A stretch of 64,000 nt of DNA, from positions 368,938-432,937 of the forward strand of contig CAVVBB010000003.1 in NCBI GenBank assembly GCA_963746475.1, read 5' to 3'. This DNA comes from an uncultured delta proteobacterium (lineage in GTDB: Bacteria; Myxococcota_A; Polyangia; Polyangiales; Houyiibacteriaceae). The translations under genes were made by a program, and so were the position numbers. The notes under the pieces were generated by a model that saw only the letters and a list, made by a program, of their open reading frames with translations, was not told the DNA's origin and did no database searches. Below, piece after piece: positions 3,160 to 46,402 of the stretch; the stretch's first letter is position 1; each line of letters starts with the position of its first letter.

Positions 3160-5622
3160 ATGAGACGCTCTTACCTGCTCTTGGCCCTGGCGGTGACCCT
3201 GTCACTCGGCGGAGCTGCGCTCGCGAGCCGCTTGCAACTCGACTCACGAATCGAAGCGCTTCTTCCGAGCGACTCGCCGTCCGTTCGCGCGCTCGGCACG
3301 CTTCGTGCCCGCCTCGGCATCGACGAGCCGCTGACGATTCTAGTCGATTCCGACGACCCGCAGCGGAGCGCCCACATCGTCGATGCACTGGCGGCTGAGC
3401 TGCAGCAGTGGGACGAGACGCAATGGGTGATGACCGAGTACGGCGTGGAAGCACTGATCGACAGGGCCTTGTTCTACGTCGACTACGAGACCTTGCAGGA
3501 GTGGAACGAGCTCGCCGCGGAGGCGATGGACTGGGAGGTCTGCAAGGCCTCGCCTTTCTGCGTGACCATCGCCGACCCGCCCGAGCTCCCGAGCAGCGAC
3601 GAGGTGCGGGAGGCCATCGAGCGTTCCGCGGCCGGCGCGGCGCTCAAGGAGCTCACCGGAGTGGCGTCTCGGCAAACCCCAGCGGCCTCTCCGACGCAAG
3701 GAGGCCAGCGGCTGTGCGATGACAGCGGCCGGATCTGCGCGGTGCAGGCCATGATGAAGGGATCTGCGGGCGACCTCGGCTATGCACAGCACATCAAGGC
3801 CAAGGCCGAGGCGCTCATCGCCGAGCTGAGCCCGGCTGGCAGCGCGAACGCGCGCATCGTCGTCAGCGGTCGGTACCGAAACGCACCACTCGAGCACGAA
3901 ATCACGCGCGCAGACCTGTCGCGCGTCTCGCTCATCGCCTTCGCGGGTCTCATGCTCATCGTGCTCGCCTTCTTTCGGGACCTGCGCGCACTGCTCCAAC
4001 TGAGCCTGCCCGTCCTGAGTGGCCTGGCCGCCAGTCTGGGGCTCATCGCGCTCATTGAACCGAGGATCAATCTCATTAGCGCCTCCGCGCTCGCGATCCT
4101 GGCTGGGATGGGCATCGACTTCGGGATCCATTTGCTCATGCACTTTCGCGCCGCTCGCGCGGACGGGGCGCAGACGCAGACCGCTGCCTTGGACAGCGTA
4201 CGCGGCCTCTGGGTCTCTCTGCTCGTCGCGGGCCTGACCACTGCCTGTGGGTTCGCAGCCCTGGCCATCAGCGACTTTCAGGGCTTCTCTCAGATGGGCT
4301 GGATGGCCTCACTCGGGATCGTCGTGTGCCTGCTTTGGACGCTCGCCAGCTTCCCCGGCCTGATGCTGCTCATTCCCGGAGGCCTCGGACGACGCTTCGA
4401 GGCGCGCGCCGCGCAAAACGGAGCCAGACGCCACTGGGCTCTGGGCGTGCTCCTGCTCGCCTTCATCTGCGTGCCGCTCACTCTGCCCGTGGAGTTCGAA
4501 CGCGACTTCCAAGCCCTTCGGCCGTCGTCGATCAGCCACGGCATCGACTCGGCGAGTGTCATGCGCGCGCGCAAAGGCGTGTCCGTGTATGTGATCGGGG
4601 ACGACCAGGTCTCGGTCGAAGCCGCGCTGGACGCCGACAAGCTCAGCGCGAGCGCCGGCGACGCCCTCGGCCTGAAGCCCACGGTCGTCTCGGCCAGCGC
4701 GCTCTTCACACGCGACGCCGACGCCAAGGCTGCGCTCATCCAGAACATGAGAGACACCCTGGAGCGCGCCCGAAAGAAGGCCGAAGGGCGAGAGGACAGC
4801 GCGCAGCTCGCCGAGCTCGCGGAGTTCGAGCCCTGGCTGGCGGTCGAGGGCAAGCCAGAGCCTTCGCAGCTCCCGCCCTGGCTAGCTTCCGCGCTCGTCG
4901 ACGTCGAGGGCCAGATCGGGCACAGCGGCATCCTCTACCTACAGATGCGTGGCAGCGACGCAGAGGCCATGGAGCGGCTCGCCCGCTGGCTCCAGCAGCA
5001 GCGCGAGGCGCACCCGCAAGTCAGCTTCGCCTCCGCCGAGCCTCTACTCGGCGAAATCACGCCCTCACTCCAACGCGACGCGCCCTTCATCCTGGCGCTC
5101 GTGTTCCTCGGGCTCATCCTGGCCACCGCCCTGGCGAGTCGTTCCTACGCCGTCACGCGGGACGTGGTGCTGGCCACACTGCTGACGGGCTTGCTTCTGC
5201 TCGCGGCCCTGCGGCTGTTCGACTTGAAGCTCCACCTCTACAACCTCTTGGCCCTACCCGTGGTCATCGGCTTGGCCGTGGACGGTGCCGTCCATGTGCG
5301 CTGGGCGCGGACCCATGCAGACCCCGCTCACCGCTACACCGCGTACCGTGCCGTCGCGGCCTCGACGCTCACTTCGCTCGTAGCCTTCCTGAGCCTGCTC
5401 ACGGCGGAGAGTCCCGGTCTACGGTCACTCGGCCTGCTCGGCGCCCTCGGCCTGGCCCTCTCACTGCTGGTGAATCTACTCTGGCTGCGTGACTGGTGCC
5501 CGGTGGAGCCGGCCATGGGCACGGCGTCTGGACGACAGCCGGCAGGAGACCCTGGCCCGCCGGCGACCGGGGCGCAGTTTTCCGACATGGAAACCTTTGA
5601 CAGTCAGGGAGCCACAGGCTAG
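3160..5622 (+). CDS. RND-superfamily / MMPL-type exporter (HpnN-like lipid or glycolipid exporter)
   Basis: 820 aa with an N-terminal anchor. It has two transmembrane bundles, each preceded by a large soluble domain, with internal-repeat motifs ...AGMGIDFGIHLLMHF... and ...VIGLAVDGAVHVRW.... Confidence 0.75.
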   Translation: MRRSYLLLALAVTLSLGGAALASRLQLDSRIEALLPSDSPSVRALGTLRARLGIDEPLTILVDSDDPQRSAHIVDALAAELQQWDETQWVMTEYGVEALIDRALFYVDYETLQEWNELAAEAMDWEVCKASPFCVTIADPPELPSSDEVREAIERSAAGAALKELTGVASRQTPAASPTQGGQRLCDDSGRICAVQAMMKGSAGDLGYAQHIKAKAEALIAELSPAGSANARIVVSGRYRNAPLEHEITRADLSRVSLIAFAGLMLIVLAFFRDLRALLQLSLPVLSGLAASLGLIALIEPRINLISASALAILAGMGIDFGIHLLMHFRAARADGAQTQTAALDSVRGLWVSLLVAGLTTACGFAALAISDFQGFSQMGWMASLGIVVCLLWTLASFPGLMLLIPGGLGRRFEARAAQNGARRHWALGVLLLAFICVPLTLPVEFERDFQALRPSSISHGIDSASVMRARKGVSVYVIGDDQVSVEAALDADKLSASAGDALGLKPTVVSASALFTRDADAKAALIQNMRDTLERARKKAEGREDSAQLAELAEFEPWLAVEGKPEPSQLPPWLASALVDVEGQIGHSGILYLQMRGSDAEAMERLARWLQQQREAHPQVSFASAEPLLGEITPSLQRDAPFILALVFLGLILATALASRSYAVTRDVVLATLLTGLLLLAALRLFDLKLHLYNLLALPVVIGLAVDGAVHVRWARTHADPAHRYTAYRAVAASTLTSLVAFLSLLTAESPGLRSLGLLGALGLALSLLVNLLWLRDWCPVEPAMGTASGRQPAGDPGPPATGAQFSDMETFDSQGATG

Positions 5623-5658
5623 AAGTGCCCTCCTCGAAGGCGAAGCCTTCAAGCCCAA

Positions 5659-5735
<77 letters not shown>

Positions 5736-5770
5736 AAGCCCAGCTCATTCGAGCTGGGCTTTGCTCTTTC
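5736..5770 (+). terminator. Intrinsic terminator hairpin after tRNA-Asp
   Basis: AAAGCCCAGCTC-attc-GAGCTGGGCTTT is a perfect 12-bp stem. It is followed by the T-containing tail gctctttc. Confidence 0.7.
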
Positions 5771-5963
5771 TGGGCCTCGCATCCGGCCGTCCAGCAGTCC
5801 GGCAGTCGAGCTCCGCCGGTAGAGCGACCGGCGCTCCGGGCGGGCACCGCGTCGACTAGCTCCGTCCGCAGTCCCGGCTGAGGAGAGGTCGAGGCTGGTG
5901 CAGGCCTCTTCGTCCCTACTCAAAATCGCTTGCGGAGGGAGGTCCCCAGTGATAGGGAGCCGC

Positions 5964-5984
5964 TATTGATTTTCACTTTCAATA
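5964..5984. promoter_or_regulatory. AT-rich inverted repeat TATTGA-N9-TCAATA upstream of the lipoprotein/imelysin operon (candidate operator)
   Basis: A perfect 6-bp dyad in a locally AT-rich stretch. It ends 17 nt before the ATG at 6001 and just before the CAGGAG Shine-Dalgarno sequence. Confidence 0.3.
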
Positions 5985-6000
5985 TCAGGAGTGCTCCAAA

Positions 6001-7506
6001 ATGAAACCTGTTTGCCTTGTCGTGATGGGAACTCTCGTGCTGTTCGCGAGTCTGGCAGGCTGCGGCGACGACAGCACCCGTAGCGGCGGCCTTGGCGGAA
6101 ACGTAGAGGTCCCGGAGACTTATCAGTTCGAGCGCGACGGCGCTTCGACCGTCGTCCACGACGGACAAACCACGCGCCAGGTCCTCATCGCCGACCTGAG
6201 CGACCTGATGAAGAGCATCAGCGCGGACGTGCTGGCTGGAGAGAACCTGGGTCGCTACGACACGGCGGACGAGGTCTACGCCCTGCTCTTCGCCCTCTAC
6301 TCCGATGGTGCTCTGGCCGACCCCAACCGCGCGATTCCCAGCTTGGTCGCCGAGGGAGACGACACGCTTCAGTCGGTCTACGCCAATCTGGGCGACGCCA
6401 ATTTGAAGGCCAAGCTCGCCGGCAACGATGCCGTGACCGACCACAAAGACTGGGACGGCGACCGACGGGACGACGACCCCGACACGAACGGGGCGCCCCA
6501 ATTCGTCGGCTGGAGTGAGGCGAACCTCGTCATCGACGGCAGCGGAAACACCGGCGAGGTCCGAAGCCCCGAGGCGCTGCTGCTTGGCCTCTTCCACAGC
6601 TTCGCCGACCAGGTCGCCGCCGCTGCGACCGGAAGCTCCCCCTTTCCCATGGACGCGACGCTCCCTCTATACCTGACTCCCGAAGGTCTGGACCTCGCGC
6701 AGCTCGTGCAGAAGTTCCTGCTCGCTGCGGTCAACTTCAGCCAGACGAGCGACGACTATCTCGATGACGACGTCCCAGACAAAGGTCTGCTCGCGCCCAA
6801 CGTGCTGGCTGAGGATGCGAACTACACTCAGCTCGAACACGCTTGGGACGAGGGCTTCGGCTACTGGGGCGCCGCTGCCGACTACAGTGAGTACAGCGAA
6901 GACGAGGTCGCTGGCGAGGGCGGCCGCCCCGAGTACGCCAACGGATACTTCGACAGCGACGACGACGGTCTCATCGACCTGCGGAGCGAGTACAACTTCG
7001 GCGCCTCGGTGAACGCGGCCAAGCGCGACCGCGGAGCCAGCCGGTCGACGGACTTCAGCGCACAGGCCGACCTGGCTTGGAGGACGGGCCGCGCTCTGAT
7101 CACGGACGCCTACGAATCGGGCGACGAAGTCGATCTGGACGCCTTGCGACAGGCACGCCTCGAGGCGCTTCTCAACTGGGAGAAGGCCTACGCGGCCACG
7201 ATGATTCACTACATCAACGAGGTGCTCACGGACATGGACAGCATCGGCGCAGAGTACAGCTTCGCCGACCACGCCAAGCACTGGTCCGAGCTCAAAGGCT
7301 TTGCGCTGAGCATCCAGTTCAACCCCTTTTCGCCGATGTCCGAGGAGGACTTCGGGATCCTCCACGACCGCCTCGGCGACCGACCGGTCGGGGCTTCGCC
7401 CACGAACGCTGAGAACAATTCCACGTATCGCGCGGACCTTCAGAACGCACGCGCCCTGATTGGAGAGACCTATGGCTTCGACTCAGACAACATCGACAAC
7501 TGGTGA
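6001..7506 (+). CDS. Secreted acidic lipoprotein, unknown function (possibly the DUF4856-type partner of imelysin loci)
   Basis: Signal peptide with lipobox LAGC. Asp-rich segments include DDYLDDDVPDKG and FDSDDDGLIDL. It is the first gene of a tightly packed operon. The family name comes from memory of the usual gene neighbourhood and was not verified. Confidence 0.65.
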   Translation: MKPVCLVVMGTLVLFASLAGCGDDSTRSGGLGGNVEVPETYQFERDGASTVVHDGQTTRQVLIADLSDLMKSISADVLAGENLGRYDTADEVYALLFALYSDGALADPNRAIPSLVAEGDDTLQSVYANLGDANLKAKLAGNDAVTDHKDWDGDRRDDDPDTNGAPQFVGWSEANLVIDGSGNTGEVRSPEALLLGLFHSFADQVAAAATGSSPFPMDATLPLYLTPEGLDLAQLVQKFLLAAVNFSQTSDDYLDDDVPDKGLLAPNVLAEDANYTQLEHAWDEGFGYWGAAADYSEYSEDEVAGEGGRPEYANGYFDSDDDGLIDLRSEYNFGASVNAAKRDRGASRSTDFSAQADLAWRTGRALITDAYESGDEVDLDALRQARLEALLNWEKAYAATMIHYINEVLTDMDSIGAEYSFADHAKHWSELKGFALSIQFNPFSPMSEEDFGILHDRLGDRPVGASPTNAENNSTYRADLQNARALIGETYGFDSDNIDNW

Positions 7507-31695: not shown

Positions 31696-34288
<2,593 letters not shown>

Positions 34289-34317: not shown

Positions 34318-34632
34318 TCAGTAGCTGCGGGGGAGTTTTTCGAGATCGACCTGGTCCAAGGCGAAGCGAATGAGCCCACTACGGCTGATTTTGCGGTGCC
34401 CCTGCTCCTTGAGCTCGGCCACCATGGCATCCAGGCGCGCCAGATCCTCCTTGTAGAGAGAGATGCAGATTACCTCATAGTGAAGGTCCTCCTTCTTCTT
34501 GGCCTTGCGAACCCGCTTTTTCTTGGCGGGTACCTTGGTAGCGCCCTCTCGATAGAAGGTGTCCCGTAGGACCGCGCTGACCTCGTCATTGTCGAGAACC
34601 GCGTTCACTCGTTCTGCGTTGCGCTTGCTCAT
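34318..34632 (-). CDS. Small ribbon-helix-helix-like DNA-binding protein with Lys-rich N-terminal tail (ParG/omega-like)
   Basis: 104 aa with tail KKKRVRKAKKKE. VICISLYKEDLARLDAMVAELKEQGHRKISRSGLIRFALDQ fits a beta-alpha-alpha RHH pattern. GGAAGGGG Shine-Dalgarno sequence; 12 nt downstream of the ParA-like gene. Confidence 0.65.
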   Translation of the reverse strand: MSKRNAERVNAVLDNDEVSAVLRDTFYREGATKVPAKKKRVRKAKKKEDLHYEVICISLYKEDLARLDAMVAELKEQGHRKISRSGLIRFALDQVDLEKLPRSY

Positions 34633-34644
34633 GCTGACCCCTTC

Positions 34645-35733
34645 CTACGAAGCCGCTGGAAACCTGGAGACGTCGTTGCTCGGGACGACGACCTGGGCAG
34701 TTTGTTGAACCGGCTCTGCCGCGAGCTTCGCGACGAGGCTCATGTAGTCCTCGGCACCGTGGCTGTTCGGCGCGTGCTCGAAAATCGTCTTCCGGGCGCT
34801 CGGGGCTTCGCGCAGCTTCGTATTGATGCGAATCGGGTCGTAGCAGCGCTCCCCAAAGTGCTCGCGCAGGGTCGCCAGCGCGTCACGGGAGATTCGGTTG
34901 CGCTTGTCGAAGAACGTGGGCAGCACGCCCAGGAGCTGCACGTCGTGCTGCAGCAGCTCGTGGACGTTTCGGACCGTACGCAGCACTTGCTTGACGCCAA
35001 CCAAGGAGAGGTAGTCGCAGGCGACCGGAACCACGAGACTGTCTGCGTAGACCAGGGCGTTCTGGTTCATCAGCGAAAGGGCCGGAGCACAGTCGATGAC
35101 CACGGTGTCGTAGTCGCGGCAGGCATCCCCGAGGCGCTCGCGCATGATGCGGTCGCGGTTGGGCCGCTCAGCCAAAAAGAGCTCGGCAGCCGCCAGCAGC
35201 TCGTTGGACGTCAGTACGTCGAGCCCGCTGCGAACGGGAATCGCTGCCTCGGACGGATGCGCCTGGTGCACGAGCACGTGATAGAGGGTCTTCTGTCCTC
35301 GAATCCCGAGAGAGGCCCCGACATTCCCCTGACCGTCCGCGTCGATGAGAAGCACGCGTTGACCGGCTTCAGCCAGACCGGCGGCGATGTTGATAGAGGT
35401 GGTCGTCTTGCCGGTACCGCCCTTGTGATTGAAGACGGCGATCCGCTTGGGACGGGCCCTGCCGAGATCCACGCTACTCTTGCGACCCTCCTCCGTCTCA
35501 CGGCAGGCCGTGGAGCAGAAGTACTCGCGTACACCATCGCCCACCCGAACCTGATACGGAAACTCGAGCTCGAAGCTCTTGCCGCAAGCATCGCAGCAGA
35601 CGCCGCCCTGTGACAGCAGCCGCTGCTGGCAGGCGGTCGAGCAGATGTAGATGTACTGCCCGTCCTCCTCGCGCACCTGATAGCGAAAACGAACCTCGAA
35701 CGGATTTGAACACACGTGACAGGTCGAACCCAT
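34645..35733 (-). CDS. ParA/MinD-family ATPase with two N-terminal TRASH-type zinc-finger repeats
   Basis: Deviant Walker A KGGTGKTT at aa 104-111, with [10 protein letters not shown]. The N-terminus carries C5-x2-C8-x22-C31-x3-C35 and C47-x2-C50-x22-C73-x3-C77 within a duplicated F-E-x-x-F-x-YQVR...CSTAC repeat. Confidence 0.85.
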
Positions 35734-35957
35734 GAACCCCCCAGTTATCGAAGTGCTTCTTGAACGCTTGAATCAGAACTGGTTCGAGCCGTCAAAAAAG
35801 ACGACGCGCAAACGCGTTCGATCGAATGGAAGCGGGAAAAACGGGGCTCAGAAGGTCTCTGGGAGACAATTCGCTCTCAAAGCGCAGACTTGCTCTTCCT
35901 CATGTGTGCGCTTCCAAGGGCATCGCCGGTAACGAGTGCCCGAGGCACGCATAGGAG

Positions 35958-37049
35958 GTGCGTACAATGCGAGCGGTCTACATCCCAAAGTACGGCAAAC
36001 CGGACGTCCTAGAGGTACGCGAGACGCCAACTCCCGAGCCTGCACGAGCTGAGGTTCGGATCGCGGTGCGGGCCGCCGGCCTGAACTTCGCCGACGTGAT
36101 GGCGCGACAGGGGCTCTACCCCGACGCCCCGAAGCCGCCCATGGTCATGGGCTACGAAGTAGCGGGGCGGATAGACGCCGTGGGGTCCGGAGTGACCTCA
36201 TGGCGCGAAGGAGACCGGGTCTGCGCCCTAACCCGCTTCGGCGGTCACGCCGACACGGTCCTCGTCCCCGAGCGGCAATGCTTCACGCTTCCCGCCGCGA
36301 TGTCCTTCGCCGAGGGCGCGGCCTTGCCCGTCGACTACCTGACGGCTCATCACATGCTGCACCGGGTGTTCCGCGTGCGTTCGGGCGATCACGTATTGGT
36401 GCATCAGGCTGCCGGCGGCGTCGGCACCGCGGCCGTGCAGATCTGCCAATCGGTCGAGGGCCTCACTACCTACGGCACGGCGTCGGGCCCCAAGCATCCT
36501 CACGTCAGGAAGCAAGGCTGCGACCACGTCATCGACTATCGAACTGAGGACTACGAAGCGGTCATCAACGAGCTCAACCATGGTCGCGGTCTGGATCTGG
36601 TGCTCGACGCGCTGGGCCCCAGCGACTGGCGCAAAGGCTACCGACTTCTTCGTCCGAGCGGGATGCTCATCGCCTTCGGCTGGGCGTCGCTCAACAAGGG
36701 AGGTCGCCGCAAGCTACCGCACGTGCTGACAGAGCTCACGAAGACGCCCTTCTTCCTCCCGGTCCAACTGATGAACGACAACAAGGCCGTAGCTGGGGTC
36801 AACATGGGCCGGCTGTGGAACTGGCCCGAAATGATCCGTGAAGAGATGCACCAGCTCATGGCGCTCTACGAGCGAGGGTTCATCCCGCCACACATCGACA
36901 AGGTCTTCCCCTTGGAGGAAGCGGCGCAGGCTCATACATACCTCGAGCAAGGGAGAAACGTAGGGAAGGTCTTGCTCGCCCCGGATAGTGACCCCAGGGC
37001 GGCGGGCTCGAGCGACGGTATTTTTGAAGTTGGCGCAAGTCTTGCTTAG
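35958..37049 (+). CDS. Zinc-type/MDR quinone oxidoreductase (VAT-1-like)
   Basis: MRAVYIPKYGKPDVLEV..., AGLNFADVMARQGLY, and the nucleotide loop VHQAAGGVGTAAVQ. Confidence 0.85.
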   Translation: MRTMRAVYIPKYGKPDVLEVRETPTPEPARAEVRIAVRAAGLNFADVMARQGLYPDAPKPPMVMGYEVAGRIDAVGSGVTSWREGDRVCALTRFGGHADTVLVPERQCFTLPAAMSFAEGAALPVDYLTAHHMLHRVFRVRSGDHVLVHQAAGGVGTAAVQICQSVEGLTTYGTASGPKHPHVRKQGCDHVIDYRTEDYEAVINELNHGRGLDLVLDALGPSDWRKGYRLLRPSGMLIAFGWASLNKGGRRKLPHVLTELTKTPFFLPVQLMNDNKAVAGVNMGRLWNWPEMIREEMHQLMALYERGFIPPHIDKVFPLEEAAQAHTYLEQGRNVGKVLLAPDSDPRAAGSSDGIFEVGASLA

Positions 37050-38003
37050 ATGGCAGGAAAAATGAGTCACATCGCCCCACTCAGAACGATCCTGAAGTCC
37101 TCCGATGTAGAGGATCCCGTGAACATCTACCTGCACCGGACGCTGGCCTATGGCTTCGTGCGAGCGGTGTACCGAACCCGCATCACCCCTGACATGATCA
37201 CCCTGCTCACCGTGATCCCAGGGCTGCTGGCGGGTGCGATGTTCCTATGGGGAACGCGCGGCGCAATGGTTGCGGGCGGTCTTCTTCTGTGGAGCTCCGC
37301 AATCTTGGACGGCGCGGACGGTCTGCTCGCGCGCGCCAAGAACATGAGCTCGGTGTACGGCCGCGCACACGACGCCCTGGCCGACGTGATCGTCGCCGTC
37401 CTGACGGTTTTCCCTGCATTTTTGCATGTCTACCTGAGCACTCGGCAGAGCATCTATCTGTGGCTGATGCTCCCGACCATCGGGCTCGCGGCGATTCACA
37501 TGTCGCTCTACGACTTCTACAAAGAGCTCTATTTGCGCGCCACCAAGCCTGGCCGAAAGATCGAAGATGTGGGCGAAACCGAGCTTCGTCAGCTTTCGGA
37601 GGCGGCTGCCAACCCGATCAGCCGCTTGGCCATCAACCAGATTCTTCTCCCGGTGAGCCAGCGTCAGCAGCGCCTGCTCAGCTGGATGAACCCCGTCGCC
37701 TGGACCCAAAGCCGGACGCTCGAGAGCAACGAGCAGGTCGCGCAGGTCTACCGAAAGCACAACCTCGGCCCGATGCGACTTTGGACCGTGATTTCCTCGG
37801 CCCCGCACTCTTACCTGATCTCCATCTGCGCCATCGCGGACCGTCTGGATATCTATTTCTGGGTTCGCCTGGTCGGCATGAACGTGATCATGCTCGTCGC
37901 CATGATCTGGCAGCGACACACCACGGAAGCCACGAACAGGGAGCTCCAGAAGCTCGAAGACGTCGAAGAGCACCGCATCCCAGCCCTGCACGCAGCCGCC
38001 TGA
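37050..38003 (+). CDS. CDP-alcohol phosphatidyltransferase family membrane protein
   Basis: Complete motif DG-x2-AR-x8-G-x3-D-x3-D (DGLLARAKNMSSVYGRAHDALAD). The start ATG directly abuts the upstream stop (TAGATG). Confidence 0.85.
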   Translation: MAGKMSHIAPLRTILKSSDVEDPVNIYLHRTLAYGFVRAVYRTRITPDMITLLTVIPGLLAGAMFLWGTRGAMVAGGLLLWSSAILDGADGLLARAKNMSSVYGRAHDALADVIVAVLTVFPAFLHVYLSTRQSIYLWLMLPTIGLAAIHMSLYDFYKELYLRATKPGRKIEDVGETELRQLSEAAANPISRLAINQILLPVSQRQQRLLSWMNPVAWTQSRTLESNEQVAQVYRKHNLGPMRLWTVISSAPHSYLISICAIADRLDIYFWVRLVGMNVIMLVAMIWQRHTTEATNRELQKLEDVEEHRIPALHAAA

Positions 38004-38291: not shown

Positions 38292-40199
38292 TCAAACGTC
38301 GAGCTCTAGTGCCTCGGCCTGGGGCGCACGCTCCATGATGAAGTCGAACCGCGCCGACGGATCCTTGCCCATCAATTCGCTGAAGACCCGGTCCGCCTCC
38401 AGCTCCCCCCCGACCATCACGCGCAGGGCCCGTCGGTGGCTCTTGTCGAGCGTAGTCTCCCGAAGCTCGTCGGCGGTCATCTCACCGAGCCCCTTGAACC
38501 GGCTGATCTCGACCTTGGCGTTCCCGCGCGCCTCGGAGATGATGCGCTCGCGTTCTTCGTCGTCGAGCGCCCAGTGAACCTCTTTACCGATGTCGATGCG
38601 GTACAGAGGCGGCTGGGCCAGATATACATGACCGGCCCGTACCAGCGCAGGCAGCATACGGAAAAAGAACGTAAGCAGCAGCGTGGCGATGTGATGCCCG
38701 TCGCTGTCGGCGTCCATCAAGAGAAAGATTTTTCCGTAGCGAAGCTTGTTGATGTCGAAGTCCTTGCCGATACCGCAACCAAGCGCGCTCACGATGTCCT
38801 GCAGCTCGCGGTTTCCCATGATCTGTGTCTGAGTCGCACGCTCGGCATTCAGGACCTTGCCGCGAAGGGGAAGGATCGCCTGGGTCTTGCGGTCCCTGCC
38901 CTGTTTGGCGTTGCCGCCCGCGCTGTCGCCCTCGACCAGGAACAACTCGGACTCGCCCGGATTCGTGCTCGAGCAGTCGGCGAGCTTGCCCGGAAGGTTC
39001 AGCCGATGGCTGACGGCCGTCTTGCGCTGAATCTGCTGGCTGGCCGCACGGCTGGCCGCGCGAGCCCGCGAGGCGATGACCACGCGTGACACGATGGACT
39101 CGGCCGAAGTCTTGTTCTGGTGTAGCCAATGCTCGAACGCGGTCCGAATGGAAGTCTCGAGCTGAGCGGTGATCTCCGGGTTGTTGAGCCGGTCCTTGGT
39201 CTGCCCCTGGAACTGAGGTTCTTGCACGTAAACGCTGACGATGGCGACCAGACCCTCGCGGATGTCGTCCGCGGTGACCTTCACACCCTTGGGCACCAGC
39301 TTGTGGGCGTCCATGTAGTTGCGAAGGGCCTTGGCGACGCCCTGTTTGAATCCATTTTCGTGGGTGCCGCCGGAGCCGGTCGGGATGCCGTTGGCGTAGC
39401 TGCGAATCACCTCGTCCGTGGCCTCGGTCCATCGAAGGGCCAACTCGAAGCGCGGCTCTTCCTCGTGATCCACGGTGAATGCTTCGGGATGCACCGAGGG
39501 CTTCCCGCGTTCGGCGATGAACTTCTCGAGGAAGTCGACGATGCCGCCGGGATGCTCGAACTCCGCCTTTTCCTGGGACCTCTCGTCGACGAAGACGATT
39601 TTCAGACCGCGATGCAGATAGGTCTTCGATTCGAGCCGCTCACGGACGCGGTTCAGATCAAAGGAGGCCTTCTTGCCGAAGATGTCCGTGTCGGGACGAA
39701 AGTGGATGCTGGTGCCGCGCTTGCTGGTCTTGGTGCCCTTCTTGAGCTTGCCCGTCGGCTTGCCTCGAGCGTAAGTCTGCTCATAGGTGACACCGCCTCG
39801 CCAGACGGTCGCGCTCAGCTCGGTCGACAGCGCGTTGACGACGGAGGAGCCCACACCGTGCAGGCCGCCTGCGACTTGGTAGTTTTTCCCTTCGAACTTT
39901 CCCCCGGCATGCAAGGTGGTGAGAATGAGCTCCAGCGCGGAGCGCTTGTACTTGGGATGAATGTCGACTGGAATGCCCCGACCGTTGTCGGTGACCGTCA
40001 CGCCCCGATGGTCGCGGTCCAGGACGACTTCGATACGGCTGGCGAACCCGTTGATGGCCTCGTCGACACTGTTGTCCAGGAGCTCCCACAGGAGGTGGTG
40101 ATAACCGTTGGCATCGGTTCCGCCGATGTACATGGCCGGCCGCTTGCGAACGGGCTCGAGCCCTTCCAGCACCTCGATGTCTTTGGCCGTGTAAGCCAC
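38292..40199 (-). CDS. parE: Type IIA topoisomerase subunit B, ParE (topo IV)-like
   Basis: 635 aa, lacking the long GyrB insertion. GHKL N-terminus [16 protein letters not shown]; Toprim motifs EGDSAGG and PLRGKVLN. The GTG start shares 1 nt with the upstream stop. Confidence 0.85.
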
Positions 40200-42559
40200 T
40201 AGTCCTCCGGAAAGCTTGGGATTTCGGGTTCTTGGTACACTTGGGCCTCGACCTTGCCACGGGTGAACAGCTGAAAGCCTTTGCCTCCGCGTGAGACCGC
40301 TTCGTACTTGCGGCGCGTGATGCGGTAGTCGCTCCCACCTTCGCGTTTCACGACGAGGGCATCGTCGTCGTACCCGAGCACCTTGGCCGCGACGAGCTCG
40401 TCACCCTTGGCAAGCTTGATGAGCATGACTCCTCGGCCCGGACCCGACAGCAGCGAGACCTCGTCGGTCGAGCAGAGCAAGGCTCGCCTCTGCCGGCTGA
40501 CGCAGGCCACGCAGTCGTTCGCGTAGACGGCCCCCACATAGATGACCTCGTCCCCCGGCTTGGGGCGCGTGAACTTGCGCCCGGTTCGAGTGCTGGGTTC
40601 ACGATGTCCGCGCAAAGAGAAAAGAAGCGACAGCCCGCCGCGCGTGACCGCGATGGCGTACGGTTCCTCCGGCTCCTCGGCCCCCTCGGTTGGCGGCGGC
40701 ACCTCGAAGAACCGGGGATCGAAGCCGATGGCCGCGACGACTCGCTCACCGTCGGCCATCTTGAACAGCGTCTGAAGGGGCGTGCCGTGCCCCGTCGTGG
40801 CAGGGATGTCGACGATGCGGCTGACGTAGCAGACCCCCTGGTTGCTGAAGAAAGCGACCGAGCTCCGGGTGGAGCCCGCCAGAACGGCAAGCACCTGGTC
40901 CCCCTTGCGAAGCCGGGTCGAGCCGACATCCTTGACCCGCTGCTGCCGCTTCACCCAGCCCTGCCGGGTCACGACCACCATCGCGTCTTCCTCGACGATG
41001 AAGTCCTCCGCGTCGAACTCGGGCTCGTCGAGCTTGGCAACGATCCGCGTACGTCGGGGGTCGGCATAGGCGGCGCTGACCTCTTCGAGCTCGGCACGAA
41101 TCAGCTTCCAGCGGGCGGACTCGCTCTTCAGCAGGCGTTGCACCCTGCGGGCCTCCGTCTCCTTCTCCTGTAGCTCCTCGCGGATGATGAGAATCTGCAG
41201 CTTGGCCAAGCGATACAGCTTGAGCTCCAGAATGGCGTCGGCCTGCAGCTCGTCGATCTCGAAGCGCGCGATGAGCTTCTTGGCGGCGTCCTGCTTGCCC
41301 TCGGAGCGGCGAATGATGCGAATCGCCTCATCCAGGGCGTCGAAAATGGTGACGAAGCCTTCGAGGATGTGAATTCGCGCCAGGAGCTGGTCGAGCTCGA
41401 ACTGCAAGCGCTTGGTCACGACCTCCATGCGGAAATCGAGGAAGTACCTGAGAATCGCCTTCAGCCCGATCCGCTGGGGCGCCGCGATCTCGGGGTGCTC
41501 GGTCGGAATCAGGCAAGTCAGGTTGACCTGGATATTCGTCTGAAGCGGGGTGTGTTTGTAGAGGTACGCCATGATCATCTGAGGATCGGCGTCTTTCTTC
41601 ATCTCACAGACGATGCGGCAGTCGTCAGTGCTCTCGTCCCGCACGTCGATGAGCGCCGGCAAGCGCTTTTGGATGATGACTTCGGCGATTTTCTCGACCA
41701 CCGCGCGGCGCTCGACGGCGTAGGGAATCGAATTGATGATAATCAGCGGGTTGCCACGCTCGGGGCGCTCGCTCTTCCACTGCCCTCGAAGCTTGAGCGA
41801 GCCTTGCCCCGTCTCATAGGCCGCAGCGATCTCCTCGCGCGAGCTCACGAGCTCGCCGCCCGTCGGGAAGTCCGGTCCCTTGACGAACTTCATGAGCTGC
41901 TTGGTGCTCAAATCTCCGTCGATGAGGGCCACCGCGGCTCGCACCACCTCGACCAGGTTGTGTGGCGGAATCGACGTGGCCATGCCGACCGCGATGCCCT
42001 GTGAGCCGTTGACGAGAAGGTTCGGGAAGCGAGCGGGCAGGACGATCGGCTCGAAGAGACGGCCGTCGTAGTTCGGACGAAAGGCGACCGTCTGCTTGCC
42101 GAGCTCGCCGAGCAACTCGTCGGCGAGCTTTTGCAAGCGCGCTTCGGTATAGCGCATGGCCGCCGCGGCATCGCCATCCGGAGAGCCGAAATTGCCACGG
42201 CCGTCCACCAGCGGCTGCCGCATGGCGAAGCTCTGCGCGAGCCGAACCAGAGCGTCGTAGATAGCCGTGTCCCCATGTGGATGGAACTTGCCCATCACGT
42301 CGCCGACGATGGCCGCCGACTTGCGATGCTTGACGTCACTGCGCAGGCGCAGCTCGTTGTACATCGTGTACAAGATCCGGCGCTGCACTGGCTTGAGGCC
42401 GTCGCGTACGTCGGGCAGGGCCCGGGCCGTGATGACGCTCAGCGCGTAGTTCAGGTACCGTCGCTTCGTCTCTTCGACCAACGAGGCATCTTCGATGCTG
42501 TCGATAGGCAGGTCGATCTGGGGACCCTTCTTGGATTTCTTCTTGCGACTGCGCGCCAT
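40199..42559 (-). CDS. parC: Type IIA topoisomerase subunit A, ParC (topo IV)-like
   Basis: [17 protein letters not shown] and the catalytic Tyr motif [11 protein letters not shown]. No QRRGGKG GyrA-box at the start of the C-terminal domain ([10 protein letters not shown] occupies that position). Confidence 0.78.
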
Positions 42560-44551: not shown

Positions 44552-46402
44552 TTGTCTGCGCCTTACGTCAGCACGGCCCTCCGGGAACGGGCCCGCCGAA
44601 CTCGACCGCCTAGCTCACACGAAGACGTGCTGCGCTGGCGGGAGCCCATGATCGGAGTGCTCCGAGCCCTCGATGCGTTGCTGCGCGACCCGAGCACGCC
44701 GGCGGGTCCCTTGCCGTTCGACCTGCTCCGGCAGGTCCTGCGACGCTTTCCGCGCGATGGCGGAGGCTTCTTCTCGACCAGTCAGCTCCTCGCTGGCTTC
44801 CGGGCCTTCCATGAGGAAGCCGGTATCGAAGTCTCGGAGGAGGCTTTCGTCGGCCGGCTCCGGTTCCGCCCGACGCGAACCCGAAGTGGCGTGGCTCCGG
44901 TGGCGGTGTTCACAAAGCCCTATCCTTGCCCTGGCAAGTGTGTGTTCTGCCCCAATGACGTGCGCATGCCCAAAAGCTACCTCTCGGACGAGCCCGGTGC
45001 ACAGCGCGCGGAGGACAACCAGTTCGACCCGTATTGGCAGACCTGGATGCGACTGGCTGCGCTGCACGCGACCGGACACCCCATCCACAAGGTCGAGCTC
45101 ATCATTCTGGGCGGCACTTGGAGTTTCTACGCGCCCGCGTACCAGCGCTGGTTCGTCAGGCGCTGCTTCGATGCCCTCAATGATTTCGACGGCTCGAGCG
45201 AGCCGAAGAGCCGCCCCGCGCCTAATCCCTTCGAAACGCTCAGCCGGCACGTGGACGGCCGCACCCTGAAGAAGAGCTACAATCAGCAGGTTTCCGGGAG
45301 ACTCCGGGAGGTCTACGGCGGACAGCTCGTCTCCGAGGAGGAGCAAGCGGGCTGGGACGACATCGAGCAGGCCCATGAGCGCAACGAGACCGCCCACCAT
45401 CGCTGCGTCGGCCTGGTCGTCGAGACCCGGCCAGACGAAATCGATGTCGACTGCGCGACGAACCTACGCCGGCTCGGCGTCACCAAAGTCCAGCTCGGCA
45501 TCCAGAGCCTGAATGACGCCGTCTTGCTCGCAAACAAGCGCGGACACGACAGTGACTGCACGCGGGAGGCCGCGAGCCTGCTGCGCCGCTTCGGGTTCAA
45601 AATCCAGGCCCATTGGATGCCCAACTTGCTTGGTTCGACCCCGGTCGACGACCGCTGCGACTACGACGAGCTGTTCACAGACCCGGCCCTTCGACCCGAC
45701 GAGCTCAAGATCTATCCCTGCAGCCTGGTCGAGAGCGCGGAGTTGATGCAGTTCCACGAAAGCGGTCAATGGCGGCCCTACTCGCGCGAAGAGCTGCTCG
45801 GCGTGCTGTCCCACGCGCTACGAACGACACCCCGATATTGTCGCCTCAGCCGCGTCGTCCGCGACATTCCAGGAACCGATATCGTGCGGGGTAGCCGAAA
45901 CGGCAACCTCCGCGAAACGGTCGAGGCACGCCTGCAAGACCGGGGCATCCGGCGTCGGGACATTCGAAGCCGTGAGGTGCGCGGCAGCGCCGTCGACCCG
46001 CAAACCCTGTCTTTGCGCCGGACCCACTATCCGACGGCCAGTGGCGAGGAGCTCTTCCTCGAGTGGGTCACGCCGCAAGACCGCATCGTCGGCTTCCTCA
46101 GGCTTTTTCTACCCCGGGAGCCGGCGCCCCTGGCGGAGCTTCGAAGCAGCGCGCTCATCCGCGAAGTCCACGTCTACGGCCTCGCCCTGAACCTCGGCAC
46201 GAGAGACGCCGAGGCCGCCCAGCACCGAGGCCTCGGCCGTGCGCTGATCGAGCAGGCCAGTCACGCCGCGGCTGAAGCCGGCTTCGACCGTGTCTCGGTG
46301 ATCTCCGCCATCGGTACCCGCCCTTACTACCGCGCCCTGGACTTCGAAGACGGCCCTCTTTACCAGCACAAGAGAACTCGTCTCCAGCCGACGAAGGGCT
46401 GA
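44552..46402 (+). CDS. Elp3-like radical SAM / GNAT acetyltransferase (tRNA U34 modification enzyme homolog)
   Basis: Radical-SAM cluster CPGKCVFC (CxxxCxxC), KVELIILGGTWSFY, and a C-terminal GNAT motif HRGLGRALIEQA. TTG start at 44552 (alternative ATG at 44648). Confidence 0.85.
   Translation: MSAPYVSTALRERARRTRPPSSHEDVLRWREPMIGVLRALDALLRDPSTPAGPLPFDLLRQVLRRFPRDGGGFFSTSQLLAGFRAFHEEAGIEVSEEAFVGRLRFRPTRTRSGVAPVAVFTKPYPCPGKCVFCPNDVRMPKSYLSDEPGAQRAEDNQFDPYWQTWMRLAALHATGHPIHKVELIILGGTWSFYAPAYQRWFVRRCFDALNDFDGSSEPKSRPAPNPFETLSRHVDGRTLKKSYNQQVSGRLREVYGGQLVSEEEQAGWDDIEQAHERNETAHHRCVGLVVETRPDEIDVDCATNLRRLGVTKVQLGIQSLNDAVLLANKRGHDSDCTREAASLLRRFGFKIQAHWMPNLLGSTPVDDRCDYDELFTDPALRPDELKIYPCSLVESAELMQFHESGQWRPYSREELLGVLSHALRTTPRYCRLSRVVRDIPGTDIVRGSRNGNLRETVEARLQDRGIRRRDIRSREVRGSAVDPQTLSLRRTHYPTASGEELFLEWVTPQDRIVGFLRLFLPREPAPLAELRSSALIREVHVYGLALNLGTRDAEAAQHRGLGRALIEQASHAAAEAGFDRVSVISAIGTRPYYRALDFEDGPLYQHKRTRLQPTKG

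Follow-up and report, generated by a model that had tools for sequence, protein, structure and literature searches.

The cellular structures organised by ParA/MinD-type ATPases include chromosomes, plasmids, carboxysomes, chemoreceptor arrays, and division sites, and every new pair to be characterised has revealed another way in which one ATPase cycle can be coupled to a cargo. In the type Ib plasmid systems (ParF-ParG of TP228, delta-omega of pSM19035, and the ParA of IncF/IncI plasmids with its 101-aa partner), a protein of about 100 amino acids (aa), with a flexible N-terminal tail and a C-terminal ribbon-helix-helix (RHH)-like domain, is encoded a few nucleotides (nt) after the ATPase gene, and short repeats lie upstream of the latter. 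The type Ia ATPases (P1 ParA and F SopA) carry an N-terminal extension of about 100 aa with a winged helix-turn-helix (HTH) before the Walker A motif and are paired with ParB or SopB. The Soj/ParA-Spo0J/ParB-parS systems have a ParB-type partner, whereas the orphan cargo-positioning pairs (PomZ-PomXY, McdA-McdB, PpfA-TlpT, and MipZ-ParB) combine a ParA-like ATPase encoded on the chromosome with an activator of its own that is unrelated in architecture and is expected to act via a short N-terminal peptide (PMC7993993). Here we describe two adjoining genes in a 64,000-nt stretch of DNA from an uncultured delta proteobacterium (contig CAVVBB010000003.1 of assembly GCA_963746475.1, positions 368,938 to 432,937; the whole stretch is referred to below as the window). 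The first encodes ParA-zf, a ParA/MinD-type ATPase with a predicted N-terminal double zinc finger, and the second encodes a 104-aa protein, hereafter the partner. In our reading, which we give a probability of about 0.55, they form a vertically inherited ParA/MinD-type module, an autoregulated ATPase/activator pair that follows the partner logic of the plasmid type Ib systems. The coding features of the locus are as follows.

34645..35733, minus strand: ParA-zf gene, an open reading frame (ORF) of 362 aa for a ParA/MinD-type ATPase with an N-terminal double zinc finger
34318..34632, minus strand: partner gene, an ORF of 104 aa, with the tail at aa 1-50 and the RHH-like domain at aa 51-104
35629..35721, minus strand: predicted zinc-finger unit 1 of ParA-zf, aa 5-35 (CHVC...CSTAC), C-x2-C-x22-C-x3-C, a duplicate of unit 2
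35503..35595, minus strand: predicted zinc-finger unit 2 of ParA-zf, aa 47-77 (CDAC...CSTAC), C-x2-C-x22-C-x3-C, Pfam zf-FCS PF06467
35401-35424, minus strand: deviant Walker A motif KGGTGKTT of ParA-zf, aa 104-111
34714..35448, minus strand: Soj-like ATPase core of ParA-zf, aa 96-340, containing D131/D133, D214, and K306

The two genes are found together almost without exception. When the partner alignment was used for a pattern scan of 185,579 species genomes, 80 loci were recovered, 78 of them in Myxococcota-type metagenome-assembled genomes (MAGs) labelled Polyangiales, Sandaracinaceae, “Myxococcales,” or “delta proteobacterium”; the remaining two carry the labels “uncultured proteobacterium” and “uncultured Coxiellaceae bacterium.” Of the 79 loci whose sequence extends upstream of the partner gene, 78 have a ParA gene directly before it (truncated by a contig end in two cases and with a partly masked finger region in one), and the intergenic gap is mostly 9 to 14 nt. 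The complete MAG chromosomes CP070713.1 and OZ245758.1 carry the pair as well. The only uncoupled locus, L038 (CP070650.1, a 2.78-Mb MAG chromosome, positions 4800-6300), has a masked run of N abutting the partner gene; ParA-zf may truly have been lost from this reduced genome or may be missing as a result of assembly or masking. The gene order in about 45 loci is topoisomerase B, ParA-zf, partner, guaB, guaA, and in more distant relatives the same flanking genes are found 3 to 6 kb off, with unrelated insertions between them. A metagenome scan for a divergent finger subfamily, referred to here as FRYQMEE, yielded another 80 loci (L089-L168), whose ParA cores are 57 to 65% identical to that of the window. 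Where the core is complete and more than 450 nt of sequence follow it, as in 48 FRYQMEE loci, the partner is always encoded (hmmsearch E values of 1e-25 to 1e-32), and in none of these loci is there a topoisomerase gene or guaB within 4 kb. Since the pair persists in these loci, the two genes are a unit in their own right, and their link to the topoisomerase and guaBA genes is a conserved synteny of uncertain meaning. The synteny is thus very strong, in agreement with the proposal of a ParA-like ATPase paired with a ParG-like protein in the preliminary description of the locus, which was made from the window sequence alone. Judging by the available genome and metagenome sequences, the pair appears to be chromosomal, vertically inherited, and specific to Polyangia-type Myxococcota from soil, sediment, and sludge.

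The core of ParA-zf is readily recognised by Pfam, with an E value of 1e-48 and 166 bits for AAA_31 (cut-off, 27) and an E value of 2e-22 and 80 bits for CbiA (cut-off, 25.4). Its closest solved relative is Soj of Thermus thermophilus (1wcv; E value of 9e-50), followed by Soj of Helicobacter pylori (6iub; 2.5e-31), and structures of the ParF type match far more weakly (4dzz; 1.8e-7). The signature lysine K104, the P-loop residues K109 and T110, and the Walker A′/B aspartates D131, D133, and D214 are unchanged in all 81 sequences compared. The position matching the third residue of the Soj N-V-R motif, which we take to be the nonspecific DNA-binding arginine (R189 in Bacillus subtilis Soj), is occupied by Lys or Arg in 78 of the 81. 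Because the catalytic residues are invariant and the DNA-contact Lys or Arg is kept, ParA-zf is a complete Soj-like ATPase that is presumably active. However, it scores only 91.6 bits against the NCBIfam ParA_partition equivalog, under the cut-off of 180, and is therefore not an ordinary chromosomal ParA. More than 120 orthologues are found at 64% identity or higher, all of them in assemblies assigned to Myxococcota, Polyangiales, or Sandaracinaceae. Thus, ParA-zf shares with the Soj/ParA-Spo0J/ParB-parS systems the Soj-closest core, the deviant Walker A motif, and the basic DNA-contact residue, but differs from them in the added double zinc finger, in falling below the ParA_partition cut-off, and in its partner, which is not a ParB: the latter has no Pfam or NCBIfam ParB match and, at 104 aa, includes neither an HTH nor a CTPase domain.

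The start codon of the partner gene lies 12 nt past the stop codon of ParA-zf, and the Shine-Dalgarno-like sequence GAAGGGG precedes it, as had been described, along with a Lys-rich stretch (AKKKRVRKAKKK) at aa 36-47. Homologues of the partner number about 400 in a single-sequence search and 3,181 in a profile search at an E value of ≤1; those listed are about 100 aa long and carry no Pfam domain, and nearly all are annotated as “hypothetical.” Four of them (P0168, P0220, P0381, and P0382) bear the JGI names “tRNA G10 N-methylase Trm11” or “predicted AAA+ superfamily ATPase,” evident misannotations for a protein of about 100 aa. A large homologue search with the partner profile yielded this close family once more, without any remote relatives that carry an annotation. 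Within this family, the invariant residues fall into an N-terminal part (V18, V21-L22-R23, and F26) and a C-terminal block (H51-Y52, V54-I-C-I-S58, Y60, E62...L64...D68...V71...L74-K75...G78-H-R80...S83-R-S85...L87-I-R89...A91-L-D93). The core shared with the divergent subfamily consists of D..EV..VL...FY and HYxVICISxY..DL..LD..V..LK..G....RSALIR.AL.

The layout of the C-terminal block resembles that of an RHH domain, with a predicted HYxVICISxY strand, a helix at aa 61-77, a GHRKISRS loop, and a second helix at aa 84-94. The AlphaFold model of the partner monomer is disordered to about aa 50, except for a low-confidence helix at aa 15-26, and continues with an extended segment and the helices 61-77 and 84-94, with a predicted local distance difference test (pLDDT) score of about 90. 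The model has the appearance of an RHH subunit predicted on its own, apart from the dimer. In register, but below the threshold, Pfam RHH_1 matches 113 of 120 family members (best E value of 0.0026). Phage_Mu_Gp27 matches 116 of the 120 with a best E value of 6.5e-5, which could point to an HTH rather than an RHH; this reading was not adopted, as the alignment covers only the helix-loop-helix and the preceding region is extended and not helical, but it stays as a caveat. The predicted strand (aa 51-59; window positions 34456-34482, minus strand) is invariant in both subfamilies, including Cys56, and lacks the basic or polar residues with which RHH strands usually read DNA; the two copies of Cys56 could sit close together in a partner dimer.

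Only one outside relative of the partner was detected, a family encoded on IncF/IncI plasmids. A tblastn search of the partner against 72,556 plasmids gave just two weak matches, the better of which (E value of 2) covers aa 55-102 and falls in a hypothetical gene of 101 aa carried by an IncFII plasmid. That gene shares 4 nt with the end of a ParF-like gene of 208 aa, annotated as “ParA family plasmid-partitioning ATPase.” The 101-aa family is present on 1,506 enterobacterial plasmids and adjoins such a ParA gene in nearly all rows listed. Its members share the layout M-R-N-R..., a variable tail, and ...VSISL.EENL..ID..I.....SG.xRVNRSDVVRAAV, and show weak matches to RHH_8 (E value of 0.03) and to the RHH antitoxin ParD (E value of 1.1). 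Alignment of the partner profile with this plasmid family by hhalign gives a probability of 92.7% over 44 columns, spanning the strand, the first helix, the GHRxxxRS loop, and the second helix. The genomic context of the plasmid match, next to a ParA gene, is independent of the way it was selected and is unlikely to have arisen by chance; we therefore regard the partner as an adaptor of the ParG-like (type Ib-style) kind that probably has an RHH domain, an assignment that we consider likely. As for the ParG/omega-type partner proposed in the preliminary description, the model shows a fitting disordered tail, extended segment, and two helices, and the hhalign result points the same way, whereas the RHH scores stay below the formal thresholds.

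The plasmid link also provides the one argument for regarding the pair as the remnant of an integrated partition cassette from a plasmid or another mobile element, an explanation that we find scarcely credible. The G+C content is even across the region, at about 62%; ORF and family scans of the neighbourhood found no integrase, transposase, or replication genes; the same chromosomal neighbourhood recurs across dozens of species; the plasmid search found no plasmid homologue of the finger domain; and the core of ParA-zf is Soj-like and not ParF-like. The flat G+C profile, the conserved synteny, and the lack of plasmid homologues of the fingers led us to reject a mobile-element origin. The partner likewise lacks a real plasmid homologue, and nothing in the sequence suggests that the region is an island. 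In comparison with the type Ib systems, the locus has the small tailed RHH-like partner gene a few nt after the ATPase gene and the short repeats upstream. However, its ATPase has 362 aa, of which 95 form the zinc-finger extension ahead of a Soj-like core, as opposed to about 210 aa in ParF and to the 200 to 230 aa, without any such extension, that are usual for type Ib ATPases; it is chromosomal and vertically inherited and has one or two palindromic boxes; and no sequence similarity is detectable between its partner and ParG or omega themselves.

The N-terminal region of ParA-zf contains the pattern C-x2-C-x22-C-x3-C exactly twice. Both units, as well as the KGGTGKTT motif, are present where the preliminary description had placed them, with the spacing of the TRASH signature (C-X2-C-X19-22-C-X3-C), and its claim that they stem from a duplication of about 35 aa is confirmed by a local alignment score of 95, compared with 21 ± 4.4 for shuffled sequences (0 of 2,000 shuffles reached 95). 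Unit 2 (aa 45-78) matches Pfam zf-FCS (PF06467) with 26.0 bits, above the gathering cut-off of 22.4, whereas unit 1 alone has no Pfam zf-FCS score. The zf-FCS (MYM-type) finger is, as we understand it, a member of the TRASH clan, alongside YHS and ribosomal L24e. The eight predicted metal ligands are kept across 74 genome orthologues, apart from the last Cys, which is replaced by His, also a zinc ligand, in a few sequences of one clade; the four Cys residues of unit 1 are invariant or at least 90% conserved. An AlphaFold model of aa 1-95, based on 30 aligned sequences, has a pLDDT of about 75 to 83 over both units, each of which is predicted to form a beta-hairpin or knuckle of short strands and a helix starting at C-S-x-x-C (aa 33-41 in unit 1). 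In a Foldseek comparison of this model with the PDB, the only local matches of low root mean square deviation are eL24 and its paralogue Rlp24 (3.3 to 3.6 Å over 43 to 46 columns, with a probability of 0.5 to 0.94 but E values of at least 0.18). Together with the conserved ligands, the zf-FCS match upholds the earlier identification of the units as TRASH-like.

The finger domain has a narrow distribution. An exhaustive, profile-free search of aa 1-95 against 1.84 billion cluster representatives gave just 92 matching clusters, at least 38 of which carry a ParA domain and 30 of which match zf-FCS; a few long, eukaryote-like multi-C2H2 proteins among them are background. The named members all come from Myxococcota, Polyangiales, or Polyangiaceae assemblies and are labelled “ParA family protein” or “AAA family ATPase.” With the TRASH/zf-FCS (MYM)/YHS/eL24 superfamily, the ParA-zf units share the C-x2-C-x22-C-x3-C pattern, the F/Y-C-S-x-x-C signature, the zf-FCS match, and tentatively an eL24-like (treble-clef-like) local fold; they differ from it in being in tandem, fused to ParA, and acidic overall (8 Lys or Arg and 12 Asp or Glu residues, for a net charge of -4), with a motif of their own (F-R-Y-Q-V-R-E / P-Y-Q-V). 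The linker between the fingers and the Walker A motif is about 10 aa long in the window and comprises about 60 to 230 Pro/Ala-rich residues in the FRYQMEE subfamily. We read the fingers as a structural-zinc module of the TRASH/FCS type on a flexible tether. Given the highly variable linker, a binding hook fits better than an allosteric metal gate, and the most likely role of the tethered fingers is to bind a protein or a specific DNA target, not to sense metal.

A metal gate had been put forward as a possibility in the preliminary description; here, the TRASH-like units would reversibly bind copper or another metal and thereby switch the activity of ParA-zf. The spacing of the ligands does match the published TRASH signature, and TRASH and YHS domains have been proposed to be metal sensors (PMC4626032). 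However, the best-matching family, zf-FCS, and the tentative eL24-like fold are both structural zinc modules, a Cys-to-His swap among the ligands is tolerated, a linker ranging from about 10 to about 230 aa is hard to square with an allosteric gate, and no metal-homeostasis genes were found among the neighbouring gene families in the window or in its relatives. With the ligand pattern looking structural, the finger region acidic, and the linker variable, metal gating is not supported, and we consider it very unlikely.

The region upstream of ParA-zf includes a candidate operator, which was delineated by comparison of orthologous loci and comprises, with its surroundings, the following elements.

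35750..35759, unstranded: operator-like palindrome GAAGTGCTTC, the perfect proximal box, 17-26 nt before the ATG of ParA-zf
near 35761-35770, unstranded: degenerate second box, about 12 bp further upstream of the proximal box
35767..35795, minus strand: tentative, inferred promoter with -35 TTGACG (35790-35795), a 17-nt spacer, and TG-n-TTCAAG extended -10 (35767-35772)
35794..35817, minus strand: terminator-like hairpin ACGCGTTTGCGCGT with a T-run, which in relatives follows the topoisomerase B gene directly before ParA-zf

Apart from a near-invariant block, TTTTTTGAC-N17-TTGAACCACTTCAGGAAGTACTTCGATAAC, the sequence of approximately 95 nt that separates ParA-zf from the upstream gene is variable; TTTTTTGAC and the block downstream of it hardly differ among at least 45 orthologous upstream regions. 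The GAAGNNCTTC decamers in this region are self-palindromic, with fixed sites mostly at -27..-32 and -42..-44 from the ATG, and at least one such box (with no more than one mismatch) is found within 170 nt upstream in 68 of 75 loci. What is conserved is the self-palindromy of the boxes and not complementarity between them. In 864 kb of loci plus the window, 32 pairs of boxes are exactly 12 bp apart and five pairs have other spacings. The boxes cover the tentative promoter and lie just downstream of it, overlapping the 5′ untranslated region (UTR); a sigma-70 consensus scan did not call the promoter, whose proposed hexamers are weak, and Rfam has no match to the upstream region. The window contains 6 copies of GAAGNNCTTC compared with 1.6 expected, a number reached in 1 of 100 shuffles, and outside the promoter it has no GAAGNNCTTC pair with the 12-bp phasing. 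The five additional decamers are located at positions 3253, 12452, 14838, 22245, and 32050. In the FRYQMEE subfamily, a similar -35-like sequence (AAAAnTTGGCCC) is accompanied by a different inverted repeat, TTGCTTCGCGATGGCGAAGC, which is also built from CTTC/GAAG (in L118, for example, about 90 nt before the start of ParA-zf); this difference from GAAGNNCTTC suggests that the operator co-evolves with the pair. The phased palindromes look like an autoregulatory operator, for which the RHH-like partner or the fingers would be the candidate binders. Autoregulatory operators of this kind are known from ParG, omega, and type Ia ParA systems.

These palindromes bear on a rival explanation, namely that the pair is a transcriptional regulator only, with the RHH protein repressing its own operon and perhaps guaBA and ParA-zf serving, through its N-terminal extension, as an ATP/ADP-dependent co-repressor in the manner of type Ia ParA/SopA, without any cargo. 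The overlap of the palindromes with the tentative promoter and 5′ UTR, and their number, one or two boxes and no array, would suit such a regulator, as would an N-terminal extension of about the size that type Ia DNA-binding domains generally have and, in close relatives, a guaB start within about 110 nt. Indeed, ParA-zf resembles the type Ia ATPases in having an extension of about 100 aa before the Walker A motif, which by analogy could provide sequence-specific DNA binding or autoregulation; it differs in that the extension consists of two fingers on a flexible tether instead of a winged HTH and in that the partner is RHH-like and not a ParB or SopB. However, guaB is 5 to 6 kb off in distant relatives or absent, as in the FRYQMEE loci, where the pair nevertheless persists; a complete and strongly conserved Soj-type ATPase with its DNA-contact Lys or Arg would be costly for a co-repressor; and the finger region is acidic. 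We therefore rate a purely regulatory role as unlikely.

In the module that we favour, ATP-bound ParA-zf would dimerise and bind the nucleoid nonspecifically, as its intact catalytic and DNA-contact residues imply. The C-terminal RHH-like domain of the partner would likewise dimerise and most likely bind the GAAGNNCTTC palindromes over its own promoter, repressing the operon in an autoregulatory loop and possibly acting as a centromere-like anchor or anchored “cargo.” The N-terminal tail of the partner, with basic residues in its first 10 or so aa and the helix D..EV..VL...FY, would probably contact the ATPase and stimulate hydrolysis, as in ParG, omega, McdB, and PomX, and the fingers may bind a further target, whether protein or specific DNA. 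A role in positioning is likewise a prediction.

Several observations weigh against this scheme. No RHH family reaches its curated threshold on the partner, Foldseek finds only four random matches (E values above 8) for the monomer model in the PDB, and the hhalign E value is not independent, since the plasmid protein was picked as the best tblastn match. The basic tail and R23 of the partner are not kept in the divergent subfamily, which has also lost the Lys-rich linker. The upstream region has only one or two boxes, fewer than typical type Ib centromeres, and no array of boxes lies within 6 kb on either side. The net charge of the fingers argues against nonspecific nucleic-acid binding. Finally, the predicted DNA-facing side of the partner strand (V/C/S), as read from the sequence, is not basic, unlike that of most RHH operator readers. 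Other comparisons added no RHH relatives: the partner profile found no RHH protein among PDB sequences, and a PHROGs search with the partner returned only repressor matches at noise level.

The lack of basic DNA-reading residues on that strand would be expected if the pair positioned a protein cargo or a division site, as do PomZ/PomXY, MipZ, and McdAB, with the partner as an adaptor and not a centromere binder and with the fingers or the partner recognising a protein complex such as the divisome or the topoisomerase encoded nearby. MYM/FCS fingers are known protein-interaction modules, which counts in favour of this alternative, as do the long flexible tether, suggestive of a hook function, and the linkage to topoisomerase A/B genes that is conserved in many Polyangiales. 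Such a role in protein interaction has been described for the plant FCS-like finger (PMC4047054). On the other side, the topoisomerase linkage is lost in the FRYQMEE subfamily, the conserved palindromes argue for specific DNA binding by some component, and no candidate cargo gene consistently adjoins the pair, so that we view protein-cargo positioning as fairly unlikely and prefer the autoregulated ATPase/activator module. Like the orphan cargo systems, the pair consists of a ParA-like ATPase on the chromosome and a presumed activator of its own with an unrelated architecture, but its partner is a small RHH-like protein, and none of the other members described in the literature found by full-text searches has zinc fingers on the ATPase.

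The next gene on the same strand after the partner gene is, as the preliminary description had it, guaB (IMP dehydrogenase; TIGR01302, 618 bits), which according to the gene calls of other assemblies starts about 107 nt past the partner gene. Beyond guaB come a divergent lipoprotein-like ORF and then guaA. The former ORF (31696-32754, plus strand), located between guaA and guaB on the opposite strand, encodes 352 aa with a lipobox-like LSLGCS near the N terminus; it has no NCBIfam match, and a similar gene is absent at this place in most relatives. On the other side, type IIA topoisomerase genes lie 2.5 kb upstream of ParA-zf in the window and directly adjoin it in many relatives. Thus, the preliminary statement that no plasmid, phage, or replication genes are nearby holds as regards integrase, transposase, and replication genes, but DNA-related genes are represented by this topoisomerase. 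The pair of topoisomerase genes (38292-42559, minus strand) encodes subunits A (786 aa) and B (635 aa), which score above the cut-offs of the NCBIfam subfamilies PRK05561 and PRK05644 and below every gyrA, gyrB, parC, and parE equivalog cut-off. Between them and ParA-zf, on the opposite strand (35958-38003, plus strand), are genes for a quinone-oxidoreductase-like and a CDP-alcohol phosphatidyltransferase-like protein; the closest relatives do not have these two plus-strand genes there, which makes them look like a lineage-specific insertion into a conserved block. Farther away, positions 44552-46402 (plus strand) encode a bacterial Elp3-like radical SAM/GNAT protein (TIGR01211, 455 bits compared with a cut-off of 350). 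No ParA paralogue is encoded elsewhere in the 64-kb window. Identity of ParA-zf with PomZ was considered and rejected on the basis of gene neighbourhood: the neighbours are the 104-aa partner, guaB, the oxidoreductase, and the CDP-alcohol transferase, with no flanking genes for large coiled-coil or scaffold proteins of the pomX/pomY kind. To our knowledge, PomXY have been reported only from Cystobacterineae, and other myxobacteria appear to lack them.

The preliminary description knew of no characterised example of this fusion, and our full-text literature searches likewise found no description of a zinc-finger ParA or of this pair, for which public annotation is generic. Each component is of a known kind; it is their combination that is new. 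Features that are usually found apart are mixed here: the core is Soj-like, as in chromosomal systems; the partner resembles those of plasmid type Ib systems; and the N-terminal extension, which occupies the position of the HTH DNA-binding domain of type Ia ParAs, consists of tethered TRASH/FCS fingers. With both proteins small and a candidate operator defined, the question is directly testable. As a tentative proposal, with the odds clearly against it at present, ParA-zf may represent a new class of ParA/MinD positioning ATPases, in which target recognition would be built into the ATPase through the tethered fingers and not wholly delegated to an adaptor, and which would act as a Polyangia-specific spatial organiser of a chromosome-related process, such as the placement of a chromosomal locus, the neighbouring topoisomerase, or the division site.

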